From a virus, in the IMG/VR virus record IMGVR_UViG_3300022745_000020, positions 83,903 to 147,902 of that record: a stretch of 64,000 nt of DNA; one strand, 5' to 3'. The translations under genes and the position numbers were made by a program. The notes under the pieces are model-generated. The model saw only the letters and a program-made list of their open reading frames with translations. It was not told the origin of the DNA and did no database searches. Numbering within the stretch: position 1 is the first letter of the stretch; the number at the start of each line of letters is the position of its first letter. Positions 3,948-59,438 of the stretch are shown here, piece after piece.

Positions 3948-3963
3948 AACATACATACACCCC

Positions 3964-4005
3964 CCACAGTAGTGCAGGTCAATCCAATGACCTGCACTAC
4001 TGTGG
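3964..4005. terminator. 18-bp perfect-stem hairpin
   Basis: CCACAGTAGTGCAGGTCA-atccaa-TGACCTGCACTACTGTGG. Confidence 0.75.
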
Positions 4006-4087
4006 TGTATAACTGTCTCTATTTTTACTCTATGCACTTCAGTAGTGCGCCAGCATCAGACACCCTGCGAAGAGGAATAAAACACCT

Positions 4088-6190
4088 ATGGCCACCACCT
4101 CCCCCATCGAGCAAGCCGCTCAGATTCGATTGGCTCAACGCAGCCTGATCAGCCCCAACGGAATGATCACTGATCGCTTATGGATACGTCAGGCGTTTTT
4201 GGTGCCTCCCACCCTAGGCTCCACAGGTGGACCCGCTTCTAGTCTAGACCCAGTGGATCAGGAAAACAGAGGCTACTCCAGTGCATCGTTTAAGTACACC
4301 GACTCTACTGTGGGTGGGAACTTCTGCATCAATCCACCTCCTCAGTTCACACCCTATGCGGATATCCCTGTTAAGGGGCTGAGTCGTCAAGCAGTGGATC
4401 AAGGCATCGCCTATTCAGCGGGCTTTACAGGCATGGGCAGGTACTACAGTGAAGCCATCGATGACAACAATCGCATCGTGCACTTGAGTTTTGGGTTTGT
4501 ATCGTACAACTCACTGACTCAGTTCTTCACAGGGTTTTACACGCCCTCACTGGCTACGCTGGCTCGCACGGGTAGATCGACCACTGGCTTCATTGATATG
4601 TTCTTGAAGACAGCTTTTGGTGTGATTAATCTAGCGGTACTGCCTCTGACGATCATCCCTATCTTGTTCATGACCATCGGTAATGCGATTCGGTTTATGT
4701 TCAAAATACCCGCTAGTAAGTTTTGCTATTTCAAAGAAGGTATGACCTCATACTGGAAGGTGGTGAACAACTTAGTCAACCAGCTAGCGGTCAATCGTCA
4801 GTTGATCACTTATACACAGTCCAGCGTGTTTGAATCGTTCATTGGTGAGAAACCTAAACTCGATAACGCTACAAAGACCATCTTTCATCAAATCTTTCCA
4901 GAGATGGCTGAAGATGGTATCATCGACGTCTATGCCATTGCTAACCGTGCTAAGCGCCTAGAGCAGCGTCACCGCAAGGAGATGTTCAAGCAACTGAGTG
5001 CCTTAGGAGATGAGGGTTGGTACGGTAAGGTCAGGAAAGTCTATAAGGAAAATGCAGGTCTGGAGCAAATCGATGCTCATGAGACCATGCCGTTTTCTCA
5101 AAAGACATTCTGGGAAAAGTTCTTCGCTGGAGCTGAGCTCAGTAAAGGCGATACTGAGGGCATCATCGAGCAGGATCTGCGCACTCGAAAAGACACTGCC
5201 AACGCAGCGACTGCCAGTGGAGGTAAGACACTCGAAGATCTAAAGACTCAGCCCTATGAGCCTAATGTCTCCGACGGATTTTTCGAATACTTCTTGGCAT
5301 CTGCTGCCGACGGCAGTTCTTGGGCATCGTTTCGGGTCGACGACACGGGATCCACCACTGAGACGTTCTCTAACTCTACTTCCCCGTCTTCTCTAGCGGA
5401 TAAACTCAACTCCGCTTCTAAGTCTGCACGAGAGACTCACATCAGCTTTGCTGAAGGTAATGTAGACAGTGCGGGGTTTGTCAAAGGTGTACTCGATGGG
5501 GCTGTGAGCATCCTCACCAACACGGCCGATTTGCTACATATCGGGGGGTTGGTGCAGTTTGCTGGTCGTGCATTTGTAGATATCCCTGAGCACTGGACAG
5601 ATCACGCCGCTAGTGTGGGGGAGACTTCTACGTACACCACCACACTCATCAGCCCCTATGGAAACGTAGTTTCGCAGATGATGCACATCTACATCCCGCT
5701 GTGTATGCTCCTAGCTGGAGCACTACCTTTAGCCACCGGTAAGCAGTCGTACACCAGTCCATTCGTGTGTCAGCTCTATGACAGAGGGCGAAGTATCACT
5801 CGCTTAGGTATGATCACATCACTCACCATCACTCGGGGTACGTCGAATATGGCCTGGGATAGAAACGGCAACGCCATGGCCATCGATGTGTCGTTTACGG
5901 TGAAGGATCTCTCCTCAGTGGTGAGTCTGCCTATCCATGAAGGCATGAGCATCATGCCCCTAGAAGGCGTCTTCGATAGTGAGAATAAATTCACAGATTA
6001 CATGATGGCGCTATCGGCCACGAGTCTGCCAGACGCTCATGATCGTCTACCCATCCTCAAGAGGCAGATGGATACCAAGATCGCTCAGATCAAACAGATC
6101 GCATCTCCTGCTATGTGGGGTATGCAGTTTGCGAATATGCTCCCAGGTCAGCTCATGAATATCTTTATGAGTCCGACTGATAAGCGTTGA
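4088..6190 (+). CDS. virion structural protein (phiKZ gp182-like, tail/baseplate region)
   Basis: 700 aa, RBS GAGGA; convergent with the giant tail hydrolase, neighbouring it as in phiKZ. Confidence 0.7.
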   Translation: MATTSPIEQAAQIRLAQRSLISPNGMITDRLWIRQAFLVPPTLGSTGGPASSLDPVDQENRGYSSASFKYTDSTVGGNFCINPPPQFTPYADIPVKGLSRQAVDQGIAYSAGFTGMGRYYSEAIDDNNRIVHLSFGFVSYNSLTQFFTGFYTPSLATLARTGRSTTGFIDMFLKTAFGVINLAVLPLTIIPILFMTIGNAIRFMFKIPASKFCYFKEGMTSYWKVVNNLVNQLAVNRQLITYTQSSVFESFIGEKPKLDNATKTIFHQIFPEMAEDGIIDVYAIANRAKRLEQRHRKEMFKQLSALGDEGWYGKVRKVYKENAGLEQIDAHETMPFSQKTFWEKFFAGAELSKGDTEGIIEQDLRTRKDTANAATASGGKTLEDLKTQPYEPNVSDGFFEYFLASAADGSSWASFRVDDTGSTTETFSNSTSPSSLADKLNSASKSARETHISFAEGNVDSAGFVKGVLDGAVSILTNTADLLHIGGLVQFAGRAFVDIPEHWTDHAASVGETSTYTTTLISPYGNVVSQMMHIYIPLCMLLAGALPLATGKQSYTSPFVCQLYDRGRSITRLGMITSLTITRGTSNMAWDRNGNAMAIDVSFTVKDLSSVVSLPIHEGMSIMPLEGVFDSENKFTDYMMALSATSLPDAHDRLPILKRQMDTKIAQIKQIASPAMWGMQFANMLPGQLMNIFMSPTDKR

Positions 6191-22642: not shown

Positions 22643-22656
22643 CGATGTTGTGATAT

Positions 22657-22705
22657 ATACACTCCCTCTACTGGTGCACTGAATGCACCAGTAGAGGGAG
22701 TGTAT
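22657..22705. terminator. 22-bp perfect-stem hairpin at the left border of the accessory island
   Basis: ATACACTCCCTCTACTGGTGCA-ctgaa-TGCACCAGTAGAGGGAGTGTAT. Confidence 0.8.
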
Positions 22706-22711
22706 GTCTAC

Positions 22712-26988: not shown

Positions 26989-27010
26989 AACAACATAGAT
27001 ACAGTAAAAT

Positions 27011-27065
27011 CTACACCATTGAGGATCATCTCCTCAGTGGTGTAGAGTCTTTTTTTTTCTTTTTT
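27011..27065 (+). terminator. hairpin plus T-run
   Basis: CTACACCATTGAGGA-tcatc-TCCTCAGTGGTGTAG then T tract. Confidence 0.8.
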
Positions 27066-31981: not shown

Positions 31982-32088
31982 GGCCCGAATGGGAAAGAGA
32001 ATATACCAACATCTGGGTCAAACAAGGAGATTGATCATGCACATGTCTCACGTCACCCGTTCTCATATACGTAACTTCCGGAGCGTAT

Positions 32089-32259
32089 ATGAGCAGGTCC
32101 AACAAGTCATACCTTCGCAGGAATCCTCCTAAGAGCCTGCGAAAGATTGCAAAGCGTCAAATTCGAGCAGTGGAGAAATCCCGTCTGCGCAGGATGGAAG
32201 AATACCAATCCATCTCCAACAAACTCTACAGCGACTTCATGGGGAGCTGGTGGTGGTGA
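32089..32259 (+). CDS. small highly basic protein (56 aa, not in ORF track)
   Basis: RBS GGAG; MSRSNKSYLRRNPPKSLRKIAKRQIRAVEKSRLRRMEEYQSISNKLYSDFMGSWWW. Confidence 0.65.
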   Translation: MSRSNKSYLRRNPPKSLRKIAKRQIRAVEKSRLRRMEEYQSISNKLYSDFMGSWWW

Positions 32260-32331
32260 GGTAATAGGTGAGTGCGGATATTGATATCCACACTCGTTGA
32301 TCATTCACACGAAAGACAGGAGAAAAGAATC

Positions 32332-32553
32332 ATGACCAAGAAAATCGTCAAAGAAGATGGTGACTGTTATTTCAATGACGAAATCACCATTGCACGGTAG
32401 TGGATAACCAGGACTCCCGGCGGGAATAGATTTAATGGACGCTGGGTCGCCCGCAATCCTCAAGGGGATATCCTTGACTTCGACACGTATGTCAACGACA
32501 TCCTCGAGAGATTGGGCTTAGAGGTCGAGAGGGCTCCGACCCTCCCCACGTAA
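32332..32553 (+). pseudogene. 73-codon gene interrupted by an in-frame TAG at 32398-32400
   Basis: RBS AGGAG; frame stays open and protein-like after the TAG (WITRTPGGNRFNGRWVARNPQGDILDFDTYVNDIL...) to TAA at 32553. Confidence 0.6.
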
Positions 32554-32586
32554 GCAACTTCACTTCAAAGTAAAGGAAACATAGTC

Positions 32587-33737: not shown

Positions 33738-33757
33738 TCTAGTCAAGGCATAACAGT

Positions 33758-33793
33758 CCCCTACACCACGGAGTAGTATCCGTGGTGTAGGGG
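33758..33793. terminator. bidirectional hairpin between convergent genes
   Basis: CCCCTACACCACGGA-gtagta-TCCGTGGTGTAGGGG. Confidence 0.8.
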
Positions 33794-33818
33794 GATCTGT
33801 TTCTTTTTTCTCTATTGT

Positions 33819-34586
33819 TTACCAACGAGCCCACTCAGGCTTATTGTCCTCAGTGAACTGCCACCCCAGAGCTTGGAAGAGCTCGATGCCTTGAGAGCGA
33901 ATGCTCTCCGTAGCGATATTGCGCACAGCGGGCTTGAGCACACCCTTGAAGTGCGCGGGCTTCAATTGCATCGCTTGGATCTCTCGATCACTCTCCAGAG
34001 TGGGAGAGTAGTACTTCTTAGCGAATTCAATACCGCTGTGCTGCACCCAATCAAACGTGACCACATGCTTGATGGTGCGATTCCACACACCTGCGATATT
34101 GACATCCTCAGTAGCACCACGCAGACTAAAGCACGTGTTCATGCGAGGATTCTTCAGTGCACTCTCGAGCGCTTGCTGGTAGGGGCCTTCTGGCTTGACC
34201 TTGGCCATGATGGTTATCTGGGGACTGCCATCGGGCTTTTTAACGCCATCGAAGTCTAACCAGAGCTCAGCGAAGTGGTGAGAGATGCGAGTCTCCTCGA
34301 TCATCATAAATCGCTCCGTATACGACTCCATCGACTGCCCAGGCAGAGGTTTGGGATGCCCGCATTCACCCGACAGAGTACTGGCCTTGACACGGCGCAT
34401 GAACAGGCTATTCGATTCGAACAGGTCCCGTGCTGCTTTATCAGCAGTGTAGTACTCACCCACGCTATTGACTGCATCGAGTGCACCGACGGGGTGAGTG
34501 TAGTAGCCGTCAGCATCGACGGGGAGTTCCCCCTTCTTATTGACGGGGAGGGTGGTGCAGGTAAACGAGATGGTGTTGTTGCTCAT
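33819..34586 (-). CDS. head maturation (prohead) serine protease (phiKZ gp175-like)
   Basis: LSGECGHP (His), ISHH, CFSLRG (Ser), VTFDWV (Asp): T4 gp21-type protease motifs. Confidence 0.88.
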   Translation of the reverse strand: MSNNTISFTCTTLPVNKKGELPVDADGYYTHPVGALDAVNSVGEYYTADKAARDLFESNSLFMRRVKASTLSGECGHPKPLPGQSMESYTERFMMIEETRISHHFAELWLDFDGVKKPDGSPQITIMAKVKPEGPYQQALESALKNPRMNTCFSLRGATEDVNIAGVWNRTIKHVVTFDWVQHSGIEFAKKYYSPTLESDREIQAMQLKPAHFKGVLKPAVRNIATESIRSQGIELFQALGWQFTEDNKPEWARW

Positions 34587-34704
34587 GGGGACTGCCTCTT
34601 TATAAAAGGGGGTATGTGGCTCGATGGATGGTGAGGTAGGGGTAGTATACCCCCAGTCAAATTAAACGTCTCTATACCATGTCCATGCGCCTGTATAGGG
34701 CGTA

Positions 34705-34741
34705 TTGCAGAAATATACAAGCATATATCATCACTACGAAT
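34705..34741 (+). promoter_or_regulatory. putative early promoter
   Basis: TTGCAGAAATATACAAGCATATATCATCACTACGAA; core TATATCAT at 34724-34731. Confidence 0.68.
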
Positions 34742-34798
34742 TGGGATAGCGAAACCCAATACACCGCTGAATCTTCAACTTCCATTGCGAGGTCAATC

Positions 34799-35029
34799 AT
34801 GTTCTCATCTGTTTTCAATTGGTCACTGGATCACTTCTCGATCGCGATGATCGGTGTGATCACCTTCTTGTTCACGATGTACATCGGGAGTGTGCTGATC
34901 CAAAAGTACCACTGCTGCGTCGGTGTCGATCAGCTGAACCTGGTGGACATCTACCGGAAGATCCTTCCGTTCATCGCGTTTTGCTCAGCCTGCGCTGGCA
35001 TGCTGATCGCACACCAGTGGGGATTGTAA
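34799..35029 (+). CDS. small membrane protein with two predicted TM helices
   Basis: RBS GAGG; hydrophobic FSIAMIGVITFLFTMYIGSVLI and ILPFIAFCSACAGMLIA. Confidence 0.7.
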   Translation: MFSSVFNWSLDHFSIAMIGVITFLFTMYIGSVLIQKYHCCVGVDQLNLVDIYRKILPFIAFCSACAGMLIAHQWGL

Positions 35030-35134
35030 GAAAATACCCACTGGTCGTATGTAGTAGATGGCTAAATCTACGAGACTCAAACCTCACACAAGGAGAGTGT
35101 ATGAAACACGATTCGGGCTGATCGAAGAGCTACC

Positions 35135-35274
35135 TTGATGTCACAGTAAGTGGAAATACCCTCCTCCGGTCCGGGAAGGGATCTTATACCCACTACAACT
35201 CCTAGATGACTGGAGTTTTTCGCTTACCAAAACCAGCTCTCGTATAGAAACAAACGGAACTGGCTGGACATCAA
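35135..35274 (+). ncRNA. candidate multibranched structured RNA or leader
   Basis: Nested helices TTGATGTC/GACATCAA, GTAAGTGGAA/TTTCGCTTAC, AACTCC/GGAGTT, CCCT/AGGG, CCAG/CTGG within a 290-nt gene-free gap. Confidence 0.5.
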
Positions 35275-35320
35275 AGTGCATACACACGTACATTTGAATA
35301 CCAACGAAAGGAAAATCCCA

Positions 35321-35794
35321 ATGAGCAAGACGAAAACCGCTGAAGGTCACGTGAGCGTGGCCGACATCTCCGCCAAGCTGCGCGACGAGGTCAAGGAAGT
35401 CGACGGCAAGCTGAACATCGACGGCGAACAGTACTACGTCCACGGCAACAACGAGGGGCTGAGTCGCCAGACACTCGACCACGTCGAGAACTACACCGGA
35501 CGCTACGCGGCTGCAGCTACTCTGGCCATCGGCAGCGCCGCGCACGACCTGATCGTCAACGGCGCCAGTGAGAGTGGAGTGGTCGAAGGTGCTGCCGAGA
35601 TCGGCCACAAGAGCCTGGAGGTGGTCTACAAGAAGGAACACTCCTTCACTCCCCCCGGTGGCGAAGCCCGTACCGTGCATGGTCACACCACTGTGCGAGT
35701 CGTGGACAAGCTCAAGGAAGTGCGTGCCGTTCGCAAGGAGCTGCAATCCGCAGCTGCTGCGGTGTGGGGAGCCCCCGAGGGCAACAACAGCTGA
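35321..35794 (+). CDS. hypothetical protein, codon bias suggests high expression
   Basis: 157 aa, RBS GAAAGGA, C/G-ending codons. Confidence 0.85.
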   Translation: MSKTKTAEGHVSVADISAKLRDEVKEVDGKLNIDGEQYYVHGNNEGLSRQTLDHVENYTGRYAAAATLAIGSAAHDLIVNGASESGVVEGAAEIGHKSLEVVYKKEHSFTPPGGEARTVHGHTTVRVVDKLKEVRAVRKELQSAAAAVWGAPEGNNS

Positions 35795-35823
35795 TCGAAA
35801 GATCAGTCGACAAACAGAGCATA

Positions 35824-35861
35824 CACCACCACACTGAGGATCACTCCTCAGTGTGGTGGTG
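35824..35861. terminator. bidirectional 17-bp stem hairpin
   Basis: CACCACCACACTGAGGA-tcac-TCCTCAGTGTGGTGGTG between convergent genes. Confidence 0.8.
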
Positions 35862-35890
35862 ATCATCTATCTATTTTTTTTTTCAGAATA

Positions 35891-36760
35891 TCACGAAGCG
35901 ATGACGGCTTGAGCCGCCAGAGACGCCGTCGAGCTGGCCAGGCCATTCATGTCAGGCTGGACCATATCGGCTTGGATACCCTTCAAGAAGGCACTGCGCA
36001 TCATCGGGTTGGCGTTGAGCTGGGAGATGTTGTTCATCACGGTCTGAGCCAGCAGCTCCACACCACGACCAGTCTGAGTCACGCCGGTCCATTGGATCGA
36101 GATCTCCAGATGTTCCATCCCGTTGGTGAGGTCACGCTTGCCCAGGATATCATTGGTGCCCTTTGGATACATACCAGCGGTCAGCCAGGCTTTGGAGACC
36201 TGGGTGTTGGTCGGATCGGGCTCCCAGCTCAGGATGGTCATGGAGTACATATCCAGCGTCATGGGGCCCACTGGTACACCGCTGACCGTGTTGATCATCG
36301 GAGTCTTGGTCTCCGGATCCATGATCAGATAGGTGATCCAGTCGTGCAGCATGTTCTGGAAAGGACGACCATACAGATCGACCACTGTGCACTGCGGATT
36401 GGTGCGCTCACGGGTGACGTTGGTGGGCGTCTCCAGGATCTCACCAGCCCCACCGACGGTGGACTCAGTGGTAGCCACAGTCAGGCCGCTGTTGAAGCCT
36501 TCCCAGGAGATGGCATGCAGCTCCACGAGGGACTTCAGTGCCGCCAGATAAAACTCACTGTTGGGCAGTTGCGAAAACCCCAGAGGGGCTTCCATGACCA
36601 TGTGGCGAGTGTGATTGCGCCGATACTTGGTCGAGCTGACCAGTTGCGACAGATCCACAGCGGTGCCATGCTGGCCACCGAAGCGTGGATCCAGGATGGG
36701 TTCTTGTCGACCATAGGCATAGGCCTTGTCGGTCATCAGAGCGTTGGGTAGACGAGCCAT
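35891..36760 (-). CDS. tail tube protein (phiKZ gp30-like)
   Basis: 289 aa directly downstream of the sheath; EPDP...KAWL...MYP motif; RBS AAGGAG. Confidence 0.85.
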   Translation of the reverse strand: MARLPNALMTDKAYAYGRQEPILDPRFGGQHGTAVDLSQLVSSTKYRRNHTRHMVMEAPLGFSQLPNSEFYLAALKSLVELHAISWEGFNSGLTVATTESTVGGAGEILETPTNVTRERTNPQCTVVDLYGRPFQNMLHDWITYLIMDPETKTPMINTVSGVPVGPMTLDMYSMTILSWEPDPTNTQVSKAWLTAGMYPKGTNDILGKRDLTNGMEHLEISIQWTGVTQTGRGVELLAQTVMNNISQLNANPMMRSAFLKGIQADMVQPDMNGLASSTASLAAQAVIAS

Positions 36761-36841
36761 ATAGACTCTCCTTTCGATGAGTAAAGTCGTGTGGTGAGGG
36801 TGTGGATGAGTGCTGTAACTCTACAGCACTCATCTCAGTGC

Positions 36842-38950
36842 TTAGGCAGCCAGATCGCTCATGCGACGACCGCGCACATCCAGGGTCATGACCGTCTTCA
36901 TGTTGTTGGCATACAGGGTGATCGGAAGCGACCAGCTGTAGCCACGCTGTGCATCGGCGTTGGTGATCTGGCACTCCGGGATGATCTTGTAGAGATCACA
37001 GAAGCGTCCGATCGTGCGTTCTTGCACGCGCTGATTCACCCGTTCGATGAACTGGGCATCGGTCAGACTGGTCTTGCCCGTGAATTCACGCCACACACGC
37101 TGACCCACCTTCTGCAGCTCTACAGCACAAGCCATGGTCAGGAAGGAGGTGAAGATAGAGGTGTCATCATCACACACCGTGTGGATGGCCGGGAAGAAGG
37201 TGTTTTGCGTGTCGTACGCTTGCACCCAGTTCAGCCCCAGAGCCCAGTCGGTGTTGCGGATGTGAGCGGGCATGAACGTGCTGTTGATGTTCTTAAACAT
37301 CGTCACACGGGTGTTGGGCCAGCTGTCCATCAGGGCAGTGGACTTCCACACACCGTTGCCAGCGCCCATCATCTTCGCAGCCATAGAGGCGACTTCGATG
37401 GTCAGGGGCAACTTACCCTTGTAGGCAGAGCCAATGAGCTCACCGTAGCGACCGACGATTGCACCACGGCGGATGCTCGTGCCGAAGTAGTCACTCTCCG
37501 GATACATCTGCAGATAGCCCAGCAGCACAGCTGCAATCGAGCTCTCCTGAGAGCGAGTAAGCTCAGGTCCGCCGACCGTATAAGTCGACAGCACCACGGC
37601 CGTGTCCTTGCGCTCAGAGATGAATTGGCACAGAGCACGCTTGGTCGTCAGCGGGAAGCCCGTGTCGTAGAGGAACGACTCGGGATACATCGCATCGTCT
37701 TGATACTTGTGATTGGGGTCGGCGTAGGCGGCCACAGCAGCACTCACTGCAGTGGCAAAAGCCGTATCATTCATCGTACCGTCAGAGCCACCGGCTGCGT
37801 AGAGGTTGGTGCTCTCGCTGGGCCAGATAGAGCCAGCCGACGCGGTATCGATCTGGAAGGTGTGATAGGGCTCACCCGTGCTGTAAGTGCCGCTGAGCAG
37901 GTTGACCAAGTACTTGGTGGCGCCCGCTACCTTGAGCTCGGAGCTCACAGCCACAGCCGCACTCTCATCGGCAAAGACCGTTTGCAGGATCTGCTCGATG
38001 TTGGCCGTGTACAGATGCATCTCCCCGAAGTCACCGAAGTTAATCGGAGCTGCGGCATTATCGATGTTACGATACGAATCCGGGAAGACCTTACCCAGGC
38101 TCACTTCGACGTTGGTGGTGGGGTCAATCGCGCCTGGCTTGAGCACGAATTCCACAAACTGATCGCCGCCTTGAGTCGATACAATCTTGGCCGTATCCTT
38201 GGAGGTGGCACGACGCGCCACAGCCAGACGGAACGGGTAAGCCCCCACCTTCTCCATGAGGGTGGAGTTGATTGCGTTGTTCGACAGGGCAGTGGGCGCC
38301 CACAGGCGCAGTGCAGCATCGTTGCCACGCTTACCGTAGCACGAAGCGCGGATCTCAGCGATCGGGTACTTGGTACCTTGCACGGGCGTGGCGTCCAGGC
38401 TCAGCAGAGTACCAGCACCAGAGCTCACTTGACCGAAATTGGCTTCATCGCTCAGGGCAGAGACGTTAGACAGGCTCCACTTGGCCAGATGACCTTGAGT
38501 CCATTGAGGAGCACCACCGGTGGTCGCTTGCACAGGCAAGCCGGTGATGGCGTCACGGGCATAGGTGCCATCGGAGTTGCGCTGATACACGGGCAGACGG
38601 CTGGCCACGATGTCCAAGCTGAGCAGCAAGTTAGAGCGAGGCCCCACATCAGCAGGCAAGATGCGCTCGATCATCTGGGCACTGCCAGCTGCCGAGAGGG
38701 TGTTGCTCAGCACGGTCTGGTGATTCGCATACTCGCTGCGCAGATCAAACGTGTCCAGGCCAAAGATATTGGTGCGCATGGCGCCCGCGACGAGTTGAGC
38801 GTCGGTGGGGCCCCATGCAGCGTAGATGTAGACCTTGGCCAGGTGGGTAGGCAGACCCACTTCATCGACCACGGGCGTGCGAGTGCTCAGGTCTTGGATA
38901 CCGCGCGCGATGACCATCGGCGCGGCGTTGACGATACGAGTAGATGCCAT
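36842..38950 (-). CDS. tail sheath protein (phiKZ gp29-like)
   Basis: 702 aa; NAAP..GIQDLS, GGSDGTM, YDTGF..TK, YPES.YFGT and C-terminal GYSW..ITLYANNMKTV. Confidence 0.9.
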   Translation of the reverse strand: MASTRIVNAAPMVIARGIQDLSTRTPVVDEVGLPTHLAKVYIYAAWGPTDAQLVAGAMRTNIFGLDTFDLRSEYANHQTVLSNTLSAAGSAQMIERILPADVGPRSNLLLSLDIVASRLPVYQRNSDGTYARDAITGLPVQATTGGAPQWTQGHLAKWSLSNVSALSDEANFGQVSSGAGTLLSLDATPVQGTKYPIAEIRASCYGKRGNDAALRLWAPTALSNNAINSTLMEKVGAYPFRLAVARRATSKDTAKIVSTQGGDQFVEFVLKPGAIDPTTNVEVSLGKVFPDSYRNIDNAAAPINFGDFGEMHLYTANIEQILQTVFADESAAVAVSSELKVAGATKYLVNLLSGTYSTGEPYHTFQIDTASAGSIWPSESTNLYAAGGSDGTMNDTAFATAVSAAVAAYADPNHKYQDDAMYPESFLYDTGFPLTTKRALCQFISERKDTAVVLSTYTVGGPELTRSQESSIAAVLLGYLQMYPESDYFGTSIRRGAIVGRYGELIGSAYKGKLPLTIEVASMAAKMMGAGNGVWKSTALMDSWPNTRVTMFKNINSTFMPAHIRNTDWALGLNWVQAYDTQNTFFPAIHTVCDDDTSIFTSFLTMACAVELQKVGQRVWREFTGKTSLTDAQFIERVNQRVQERTIGRFCDLYKIIPECQITNADAQRGYSWSLPITLYANNMKTVMTLDVRGRRMSDLAA

Positions 38951-39246
38951 GAAGGACTCCTTGTTTCGGGGACTGGAATGTGAGAAAAATAGTGTCTCAA
39001 ACGAACTGATTGCTCAGAAAAAGCCTCTTAAAGATGAAGGGGATCATTATGATTACCGCCCGTATGAGCACATGCAGAACCCTATCAATCGATTGATGTA
39101 TTTTATCACAGTGCCATATATAGATACCTCATTGATCTGACAGTCACAGGATCTCTATTTATATATGCACTACACCCGACGGATCTTATGATCACCCACT
39201 CAACCGATCTGTGGCCAGAGTCCACTTACATGGAGCACACCTCAAA

Positions 39247-44631: not shown

Positions 44632-44680
44632 ACAGCTCCCTCCTACTACAGGTATAGTGCCTGTAGTAGGAGGGAGCTGT
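44632..44680. terminator. bidirectional 21-bp stem hairpin
   Basis: ACAGCTCCCTCCTACTACAGG-tatagtg-CCTGTAGTAGGAGGGAGCTGT. Confidence 0.82.
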
Positions 44681-46812: not shown

Positions 46813-46845
46813 GATCTCGTCTTCTTCCTTATGCGTCAAATACAG

Positions 46846-46882
46846 CCTACACTACAGGGGATACGCTCCCCTGTAGTGTAGG
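46846..46882. terminator. 16-bp stem hairpin
   Basis: CCTACACTACAGGGGA-tacgc-TCCCCTGTAGTGTAGG. Confidence 0.7.
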
Positions 46883-46895
46883 TCACATGATATCC

Positions 46896-59352: not shown

Positions 59353-59438
59353 AGTCACATCTTCACGGATGTGACTAGTCATAGCACAGTGAGTGTATGA
59401 GGGGATGACCCTCATACACTCACTATTCTTTTTTTTTT
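59353..59438 (+). terminator. two tandem hairpins plus T-run after chmA
   Basis: AGTCACATC/GATGTGACT and AGTGAGTGTATGAGGG/CCCTCATACACTCACT, then a T tract. Confidence 0.8.

Follow-up and report, generated by a model that had tools for sequence, protein, structure and literature searches.

The 291-nt non-coding gap at positions 35030-35320 (+ strand) of the phage DNA analysed here is interpreted as the untranslated intercistronic spacer of an early two-gene transcript, that is, as a long leader of the cistron encoding a homologue of phiKZ gp186, a reading to which the arrangement of sequence signals leads us to assign a probability of about 0.5. This DNA, hereafter the window, comprises the final 64 kb of a 148-kb virus record, which is estimated to be 53% complete and whose contig is 92% coding. 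The unit is proposed to run from an early promoter at 34724 through the gene of a 76-aa predicted membrane protein, the 291-nt spacer and the gp186-like gene to a terminator at 35823-35883. In a preliminary description, the same gap had been regarded as a novel ncRNA or riboswitch-like leader controlling the strongly codon-biased gene at 35321. The position of a leader directly upstream of a real gene stands, but riboswitch-like control is unsupported, with neither a terminator nor a platform sequestering the ribosome-binding site predicted and with a fold that is not conserved.

A putative early two-gene transcription unit

The source is a phiKZ-like, nucleus-forming jumbo phage, because the gap is surrounded by the phiKZ-type genes of a Peptidase_S80 head protease (33819-34586), the tail tube (35891-36760) and the sheath (36842-38950), all on the minus strand, and by other phiKZ-type genes. 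Open reading frames on the + strand at 36791-38983 (730 aa) and 35909-36751 (280 aa) are antisense shadows of the sheath and the tube without family matches, and a naive longest-ORF annotation would mis-strand the tube/sheath block. In the collections searched, close relatives come from one lineage only, represented by the Logan contigs L004 (from SRR16308657) and L005, with positions 4078-5000 of L004 identical in L005; P0003 of this lineage is 50% identical to P0002, the gp186-like protein of the window.

Upstream of the first gene lies an early promoter of the virion-RNA-polymerase type (34702-34733, + strand), whose core TATATCAT occupies 34724-34731. Using a weight matrix built from 8 sites, 14 early-promoter sites were found in the 148-kb contig at a score of at least 10 bits and 12 at a score of at least 21 bits, all 14 of them on the + strand. 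The site at 34724 scores 42.3 bits, which makes it the third best of the 14, and is located 75 nt before the 76-aa gene; L004 carries the same early promoter with 42.1 bits. The early motif ends in TATATCAT or TATATTAC, recurs upstream of genes, and agrees in type with what has been reported of early promoters in phiKZ-like phages, where a conserved AT-rich stretch of about 10 nt lies near -10 (PMC7598289). An extended consensus, roughly attgca-aaa-ttaca-gtc-TATAT(C/T)A(T/C), is also present in L004 and in L021, a 731-nt contig of NCBI GCA_013565735.1. The 12 strong sites, all on the + strand, sit 40-85 nt ahead of gene starts, eight of them at window positions 380, 22730, 25305, 27093, 34724, 57069, 57515 and 59511 and four more on the contig upstream of the window.

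The gap itself contains no early promoter on either strand, the best weight-matrix score being below -5 bits, and no intrinsic-terminator-like site is called within it, nor is there any hairpin plus T-run between 34724 and 35823. A search for sigma-70 promoters gave one weak match, no more than in shuffles. The word CTCTATA is about 10-fold enriched in intergenic DNA, usually 30-60 nt before a start codon, and may represent a second (middle or late) promoter class, with copies at window positions 34670-34676, 13941, 20129 and 40246 and two more upstream of the window; the copy at 34670 is conserved in L004 and none lies in the gap. Late promoters of phiKZ have the form T(-3)ATG(+1) (PMC7598289), and TATG occurs in the gap at 35048-35051 and 35100-35103 on the + strand and at 35282-35279 on the minus strand. 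As a marker of late promoters TATG is not diagnostic here, its approximately 2.7-fold intergenic enrichment being equal to that of other TA-rich words. A middle or late promoter may nevertheless lie inside the gap, for example at the TATG of 35048-35051 or 35100-35103.

Downstream of the second gene, a terminator (35823-35883, + strand) consists of a 17-bp hairpin at 35823-35862, an 11-nt spacer and a run of ten T at 35874-35883, and its stem is nearly identical in L004. About 40 near-perfect intergenic hairpins of 13-23 bp are found across the contig, many with CTACAC/GTGTAG arms, and they usually precede a 5-12-nt spacer and a long T-run, constituting a phage-specific terminator family in which the T-run does not adjoin the stem; examples in the window are 3962-4007, 22655-22707, 27010-27046, 33757-33794, 35823-35862, 44632-44680, 46845-46883 and 59386-59426. 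In a catalogue of 52 long hairpins in the contig, the sole member from the gap is a 13-bp hairpin with one mismatch at 35013-35045 (+ strand), which holds the TAA stop codon of the 76-aa gene in its loop, forms with a pair probability of about 1.0 and is followed by no T-run. Since a 42-bit promoter lies upstream, none lies in the gap, no terminator separates the two genes and one follows the second gene, the two genes would form an operon and be co-transcribed; likewise, the gap would be an intercistronic leader because it has neither an early-promoter match nor a terminator of this phage's type.

Genes flanking the gap

The first cistron (34799-35029, + strand) encodes a predicted two-helix membrane protein of 76 aa, which shares 66% amino-acid identity with the product of a 76-aa gene at 3847-4077 of L004. 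A longer version beginning at the ORF start 34679 (116 aa) was rejected, the upstream 40 codons not being conserved as protein. Judged from this comparison, the membrane-protein gene is assigned a start at 34799, and the first 120 nt of the longer ORF would be the conserved promoter region.

The second cistron (35321-35794, + strand) encodes the 157-aa protein P0002, and its ribosome-binding site GAAAGGAA (35306-35313) with the ATG (together 35306-35323) is conserved in L004. That this is a real and strongly codon-biased gene, as had been stated, is borne out by codon log-odds per codon equal to those of the tail tube and sheath genes. P0002 matches phrog_9746 (E = 1.3e-5) and has 31 relatives at E <= 0.001 in a representative library, and a profile built from these relatives matches PHIKZ186 with E = 9.7e-9. 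A PDB profile search with the 157-aa protein returned nothing below E = 0.02, and an atlas search gave no usable lead, the model there having a pLDDT of 0.44. In phiKZ, phiKZ186 is an early transcript, and its knock-down by an antisense oligomer strongly lowers plaque counts (bioRxiv 10.1101/2024.07.31.605949). Assignment of the unit to the early class is suggested, since its second gene is homologous to gp186 and phiKZ186 is expressed early. In addition, five distant relatives carry the homologue with its own early-type motif 70-130 nt upstream, and therefore it appears to be an early gene throughout the clade. The gp186-like protein of 35321-35794 is 50% identical to that of L004 (5001-5477), as compared to 86-91% for the protease, tube and sheath, and such divergence would suit a rapidly evolving early gene, as one encoding a host-interaction factor should be.

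Folding of the gap on the two strands

The gap is indeed non-coding, as had been described, with no ORF of 40 aa or more that has coding support. ORFs of at most 38 aa, considered as hidden protein genes, lack ribosome-binding sites, and the sole long ORF touching the gap (35141-35866, minus strand) is an antisense shadow of the 157-aa gene with no family match. A scan for tRNA or tmRNA found none. A repeat or mobile element was likewise rejected, a second copy of the gap being absent from the 148-kb contig and from L004, and an internal duplication of the stop-codon hairpin, suggested by the short repeats ATACCCACT, AAATACCC and TAGATGRCT, is not significant by local alignment (p = 0.34). Elsewhere in the window, its longest gap (31982-32586) spans 605 nt without a codon-supported gene and has folding z-scores of -1.3 on the + strand and -2.5 on the minus strand.

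All helices and hairpins of the preliminary description, and the alternative pairing, can be read from the sequence at the positions given there. The outer helix pairs TTGATGTC (35135-35142) with GACATCAA (35267-35274) and, extended to 35129-35146/35264-35279, closes a multibranched domain of the + strand (35129-35279). Inside it, an inner helix with two G-U pairs joins GTAAGTGGAA (35146-35155) to TTTCGCTTAC (35218-35227), the hairpin AACTCC/GGAGTT is formed by 35197-35217, this weak 6-bp hairpin being followed by UUUUU (35197-35222), and a further hairpin is located at 35233-35263. Upstream, GTAGAT/ATCTAC forms a hairpin at 35054-35071 and GTGT/ACAC surrounds the start of a mini-ORF. Both long helices are present in the minimum-free-energy fold (ViennaRNA), and in longer transcript contexts they reach pair probabilities of 0.66-0.98 (outer) and 0.69-0.77 (inner).

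The strength of folding is less distinctive. On the sense strand the 291-nt gap folds with -72.1 kcal/mol and z = -1.58, 16 of 200 dinucleotide shuffles being equally good, and the core (35122-35290) folds with -46.1 kcal/mol and z = -2.32. Calibration with 91 random 169-nt windows of the same genome, taken on both strands, gave a mean z of -0.78 (sd 1.5), with 13% of them reaching -2.3, and the sense-strand folding of the gap is mid-rank among the 11 long gaps of the 64-kb window. The sense-strand fold is hence within the genome background and not convincingly beyond chance; most likely the helices are real, yet the folding is neither unusual nor conserved. Rfam did not lend the gap an identity either, as no match was obtained at gathering thresholds in the whole 64-kb window, nor on either strand of positions 34500-35500 at E <= 10. 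When known Rfam RNAs were sought in the window, L004 or L005 at both settings, the search yielded nothing or sub-threshold noise of the microRNA type.

These data bear on a sense-strand riboswitch or attenuator, in which pairing of GTAAGTGG with either TTTCGCTTAC or CCACTAC would set downstream expression. Both pairings exist, with the ensemble split about 3:1 in favour of TTTCGCTTAC and a pair probability of 0.23-0.31 for CCACTAC in longer transcript contexts; the weak hairpin within the domain, with UUUUU after it, is also consistent with such a device, as is the terminator-like hairpin with T5 immediately before the homologous gene of L004. However, neither pairing touches the main ribosome-binding site, which lies in an A-rich, largely unpaired stretch (mean unpaired probability 0.57-0.59), the internal hairpin is only 6 bp long, the gap is free of predicted terminator-like sites, the sense-strand z is unremarkable, Rfam is silent up to E = 10, and the fold is conserved in no relative. 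Because the ribosome-binding site is open, a terminator is lacking, the pairings miss the expression signals and no Rfam family matches, the riboswitch or attenuator is rejected as very improbable.

Folding is stronger on the antisense than on the sense strand, which counts against the leader reading. On the minus strand the core reaches -62.0 kcal/mol and z = -4.93, with none of 200 shuffles as good and a centroid close to the minimum-free-energy fold, and the whole gap reaches z = -3.67, while about 2% of background strand-windows attain -4.9. A minus-strand RNA could accordingly begin at TGTATG (35279-35284, minus strand) and give either a structured antisense RNA some 150 nt long, opposite the leader, or the beginning of a late transcript that crosses the early unit in antisense direction towards the protease gene (34586-33819). 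The minus-strand fold begins exactly with the G (35279) of TATG, the late start motif of phiKZ (PMC7598289), a coincidence that we treat as a lead only; intergenic DNA has a 5.6-fold higher density of TGTATG than coding DNA, a similar TGTATGCGC stands upstream of another minus-strand gene, and antisense RNAs are documented in phiKZ (PMC10914365). On the other hand, of the 57 pairs on the minus strand, 52 remain canonical when read on the + strand, so that the fold is nearly strand-symmetric and the minus preference rests on few G-U pairs. With 50 shuffles a weaker value was obtained (z = -3.66), the minus strand has no terminator beyond the fold, words containing TA are generally about 3-fold enriched in intergenic DNA, and L004 has neither the motif nor the minus preference, its + strand folding better across the gap. 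We consider such a minus-strand RNA unlikely.

Turnover of the gap among relatives

Synteny is kept in L004, with the protease, tube and sheath 91, 86 and 87% identical, and other intergenic regions of the two phages are 63-80% identical, a control intergenic alignment giving z = 32 against shuffles. The gap of L004, however, is 923 nt long and its flanks are unalignable to the gap of the window (z about -1 to 0). Common to both gaps are only a hairpin over the stop codon (9 bp in L004 and different in sequence), the main ribosome-binding site and a 34-nt island. A covariance model of the multibranch, built from the single sequence, found only itself in 133 kb of related loci from 12 sources, and a second copy is absent from L004, nine other related loci and the rest of the window. 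Among distant relatives, the homologue either adjoins the upstream gene directly (L006) or is preceded by 30-190 nt carrying neither the element nor the mini-ORF. Taken together with the window, the lengths upstream of the homologue range from an overlap through 30, 48, 71, 86, about 105, 146, 161, 162, 188 and 291 to 923 nt, phiKZ's own gp186 having just 30 nt. No closer relatives were found in viral and metagenome collections using protein and DNA patterns. Conservation among homologues, by which the proposed ncRNA was to be judged, is thus missing, the closest relative being unrelated in sequence and fold.

The 923-nt non-coding stretch of L004 (4078-5000, + strand) has about 60% G+C in its first half and is strongly structured on the sense strand, with z = -5.2 for 4078-4700 and z = -6.5 for 4690-5003. 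Rfam offers no match to it, and it ends with a terminator-like hairpin and T5 (about 4935-4982) directly before the gp186-like gene. Judging by these predicted folds, as a candidate novel large phage RNA it would rank above the gap of the window.

Such variability raises the question of whether the gap is a functionless spacer, that is, a scar left by recombination or indels in a hypervariable region of early genes, with the mini-ORF as the stump of a lost gene start and a fold expected from composition. The sense-strand z within the genome background is compatible with this, as are the failure of the gap to align with a close relative whose other intergenic DNA does align, and the variation of gap length from overlap to 923 nt. 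In L006, protein-coding genes occupy the position of the gap, and the gene just upstream of the homologue begins with AAAGGAGAC...ATGAAG, a gene start resembling the mini-ORF; moreover, the same 22-mer as at the mini-ORF start is found at ordinary gene starts of unrelated metagenome phages. Against it, the genes of L006 left no trace in the gap, since tblastn for a decayed copy gave nothing below E = 0.18, and the z-scores of the 923-nt gap on the sense strand would be unexpected for junk. The length, spacing and stop context of the mini-ORF are identical in both lineages, and in a genome as compact as this one 291 nt of junk within a strong early operon would be unusual. Weighing both sides, a functionless spacer appears doubtful, although it deserves serious consideration.

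The mini-ORF and the shared 34-nt island

The mini-ORF with a strong ribosome-binding site that had been described is present and has a counterpart in L004, so that both leaders carry a ribosome-binding site followed by a short ORF, as leader peptides and uORFs do. In the window (35090-35121, + strand), AAGGAGA at 35090-35096 precedes the reading frame ATG AAA CAC GAT TCG GGC TGA (35101-35121), encoding MKHDSG. In L004, AAAGGAGA is found at the same spacing of about 4-5 nt from ATGAA, six codons follow, and CTGATC lies at the same distance, with 24 of 34 bases identical. The island pattern AAGGAGA-N4-ATGAA-N12-CTGATC thus takes in the ribosome-binding site together with the whole mini-ORF, from its start through exactly six codons to its TGA stop. 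The encoded peptide is not conserved (MKHDSG as compared to MKKYLF in L004), and in both phages 7-10 nt lie between the stop and the base of a stable helix that follows it. MKHDSG is the only intergenic mini-ORF of the contig with AGGAG plus ATG outside a palindrome, and the mini-ORF is absent from more distant relatives.

Selection on the island is plausible but unproven, because the rate at which such a mini-ORF arises by chance in both gaps is 0.0001 (20,000 shuffles), whereas its identity of 71% is no more than that of ordinary intergenic DNA of the two phages, its local alignment score is reached by 15% of shuffles and is not significant alone, and its start is of a generic kind. The island may have been retained by descent and not by selection, and the mini-ORF could be the stump of a lost gene. 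Metagenome matches to the mini-ORF pattern were discarded as relatives, being chance matches or ordinary gene starts of unrelated phages. In L021 (positions 100-115), TGAAACACGAATCGGG lies upstream of a distant gp186 homologue and matches the mini-ORF body in 15 of 16 positions, reading V-K-H-E-S-G in an open frame as compared to M-K-H-D-S-G in the window; with E = 0.027 in a tiny search space and seven regions examined, this match is unproven and could be chance.

Proposed role and significance

Under the preferred reading as an intercistronic leader, the spacer would be a region of fast turnover whose multibranched fold is lineage-specific, selection on it being not demonstrable. Ribosomes would load on and cycle through the mini-ORF beside the helix, and occupancy of the mini-ORF together with the stem-loops might insulate and stabilise the mRNA of the downstream cistron. 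The gp186-like gene would thereby be expressed more strongly than the membrane-protein gene. We infer this stabiliser role of the mini-ORF from its position. When 35086-35133 was forced to be single-stranded in silico, the main initiation region was as accessible as before (0.62 versus 0.61). According to the predictions, the main ribosome-binding site stays open constitutively, with no ligand- or signal-dependent switch seen, and no expression platform is recognised because this site is predicted to be largely open.

Another proposal would give the sequence a product of its own: a fast-evolving, lineage-specific structured RNA before the gp186-like gene (291 nt in the window; 923 nt with z of about -5 to -6.5 in L004) could act in trans, for instance as a decoy or regulator of host RNA-directed defence or translation, or else ribosomes could be carried over the structure to the start codon downstream by the mini-ORF and the helix, working as a termination-reinitiation or shunt-like device. 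We regard this proposal as very unlikely.

If the intercistronic leader reading holds, the gain lies mainly in annotation: for an uncultured phiKZ-like phage it defines an early operon together with its promoter consensus, its terminator type and a corrected start of a small gene, and it removes a riboswitch candidate. The gene so served corresponds by homology to phiKZ gp186; this early gene is uncharacterised, and phiKZ is crippled when it is knocked down. To our knowledge, jumbo phages have hardly been explored for large structured RNAs, and the corresponding locus of L004, approximately 900 nt of non-coding RNA with strong structure, makes a better target than the window.

Comparison with known systems

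The nearest comparison is with structured 5'UTR RNAs of phiKZ itself (5'UTR_gp40 and the 5'UTRs of PHIKZ221 and PHIKZ302), which were identified using ONT-cappable-seq, grad-seq and northern blots (PMC10914365). They come from the same phage group and share with the gap a long structured stretch between a phage promoter and a gene, without an Rfam family or a known ligand. They differ in having mapped starts and premature termination inside the 5'UTR, whereas the gap is known from sequence alone and has no terminator-like element. A promoter upstream is present here (34724) but the internal terminator is absent, L004 having a hairpin with T5. The gap is not a conserved homologue of these RNAs, because phiKZ gp186 has only 30 nt upstream.

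Terminators of this phage resemble the gap structures in being intergenic hairpins, placed in cassettes of promoter, genes and hairpin. They are near-perfect, with a T-run after a spacer, in contrast to the helices of the gap, which are imperfect, branched and G-U-containing and lack a T-run, a distinction that the preliminary description had drawn correctly. With metabolite riboswitches and attenuators, the gap has in common the leader position, nested imperfect helices and two mutually exclusive pairings, but it has no conserved aptamer or expression platform and no conservation even at about 90% identity of core proteins.

Short reading frames in leaders and ribosome-dependent 5' stabilisers of mRNA are known from the ermC and ermA leaders and the STAB-SD of Bacillus cryIIIA, and lambda has the bar minigenes. 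These are alike to the mini-ORF in form only, that is, in having a strong ribosome-binding site before a very short ORF within a leader, a peptide of unconserved sequence and a stable helix starting just past the stop; the mini-ORF of the window differs in showing no regulatory codons, no stalling motif and no overlap with an alternative terminator or anti-terminator. Set against these systems, the gap is probably another example of the structured and variable leaders that phages are known to have, rather than a riboswitch.
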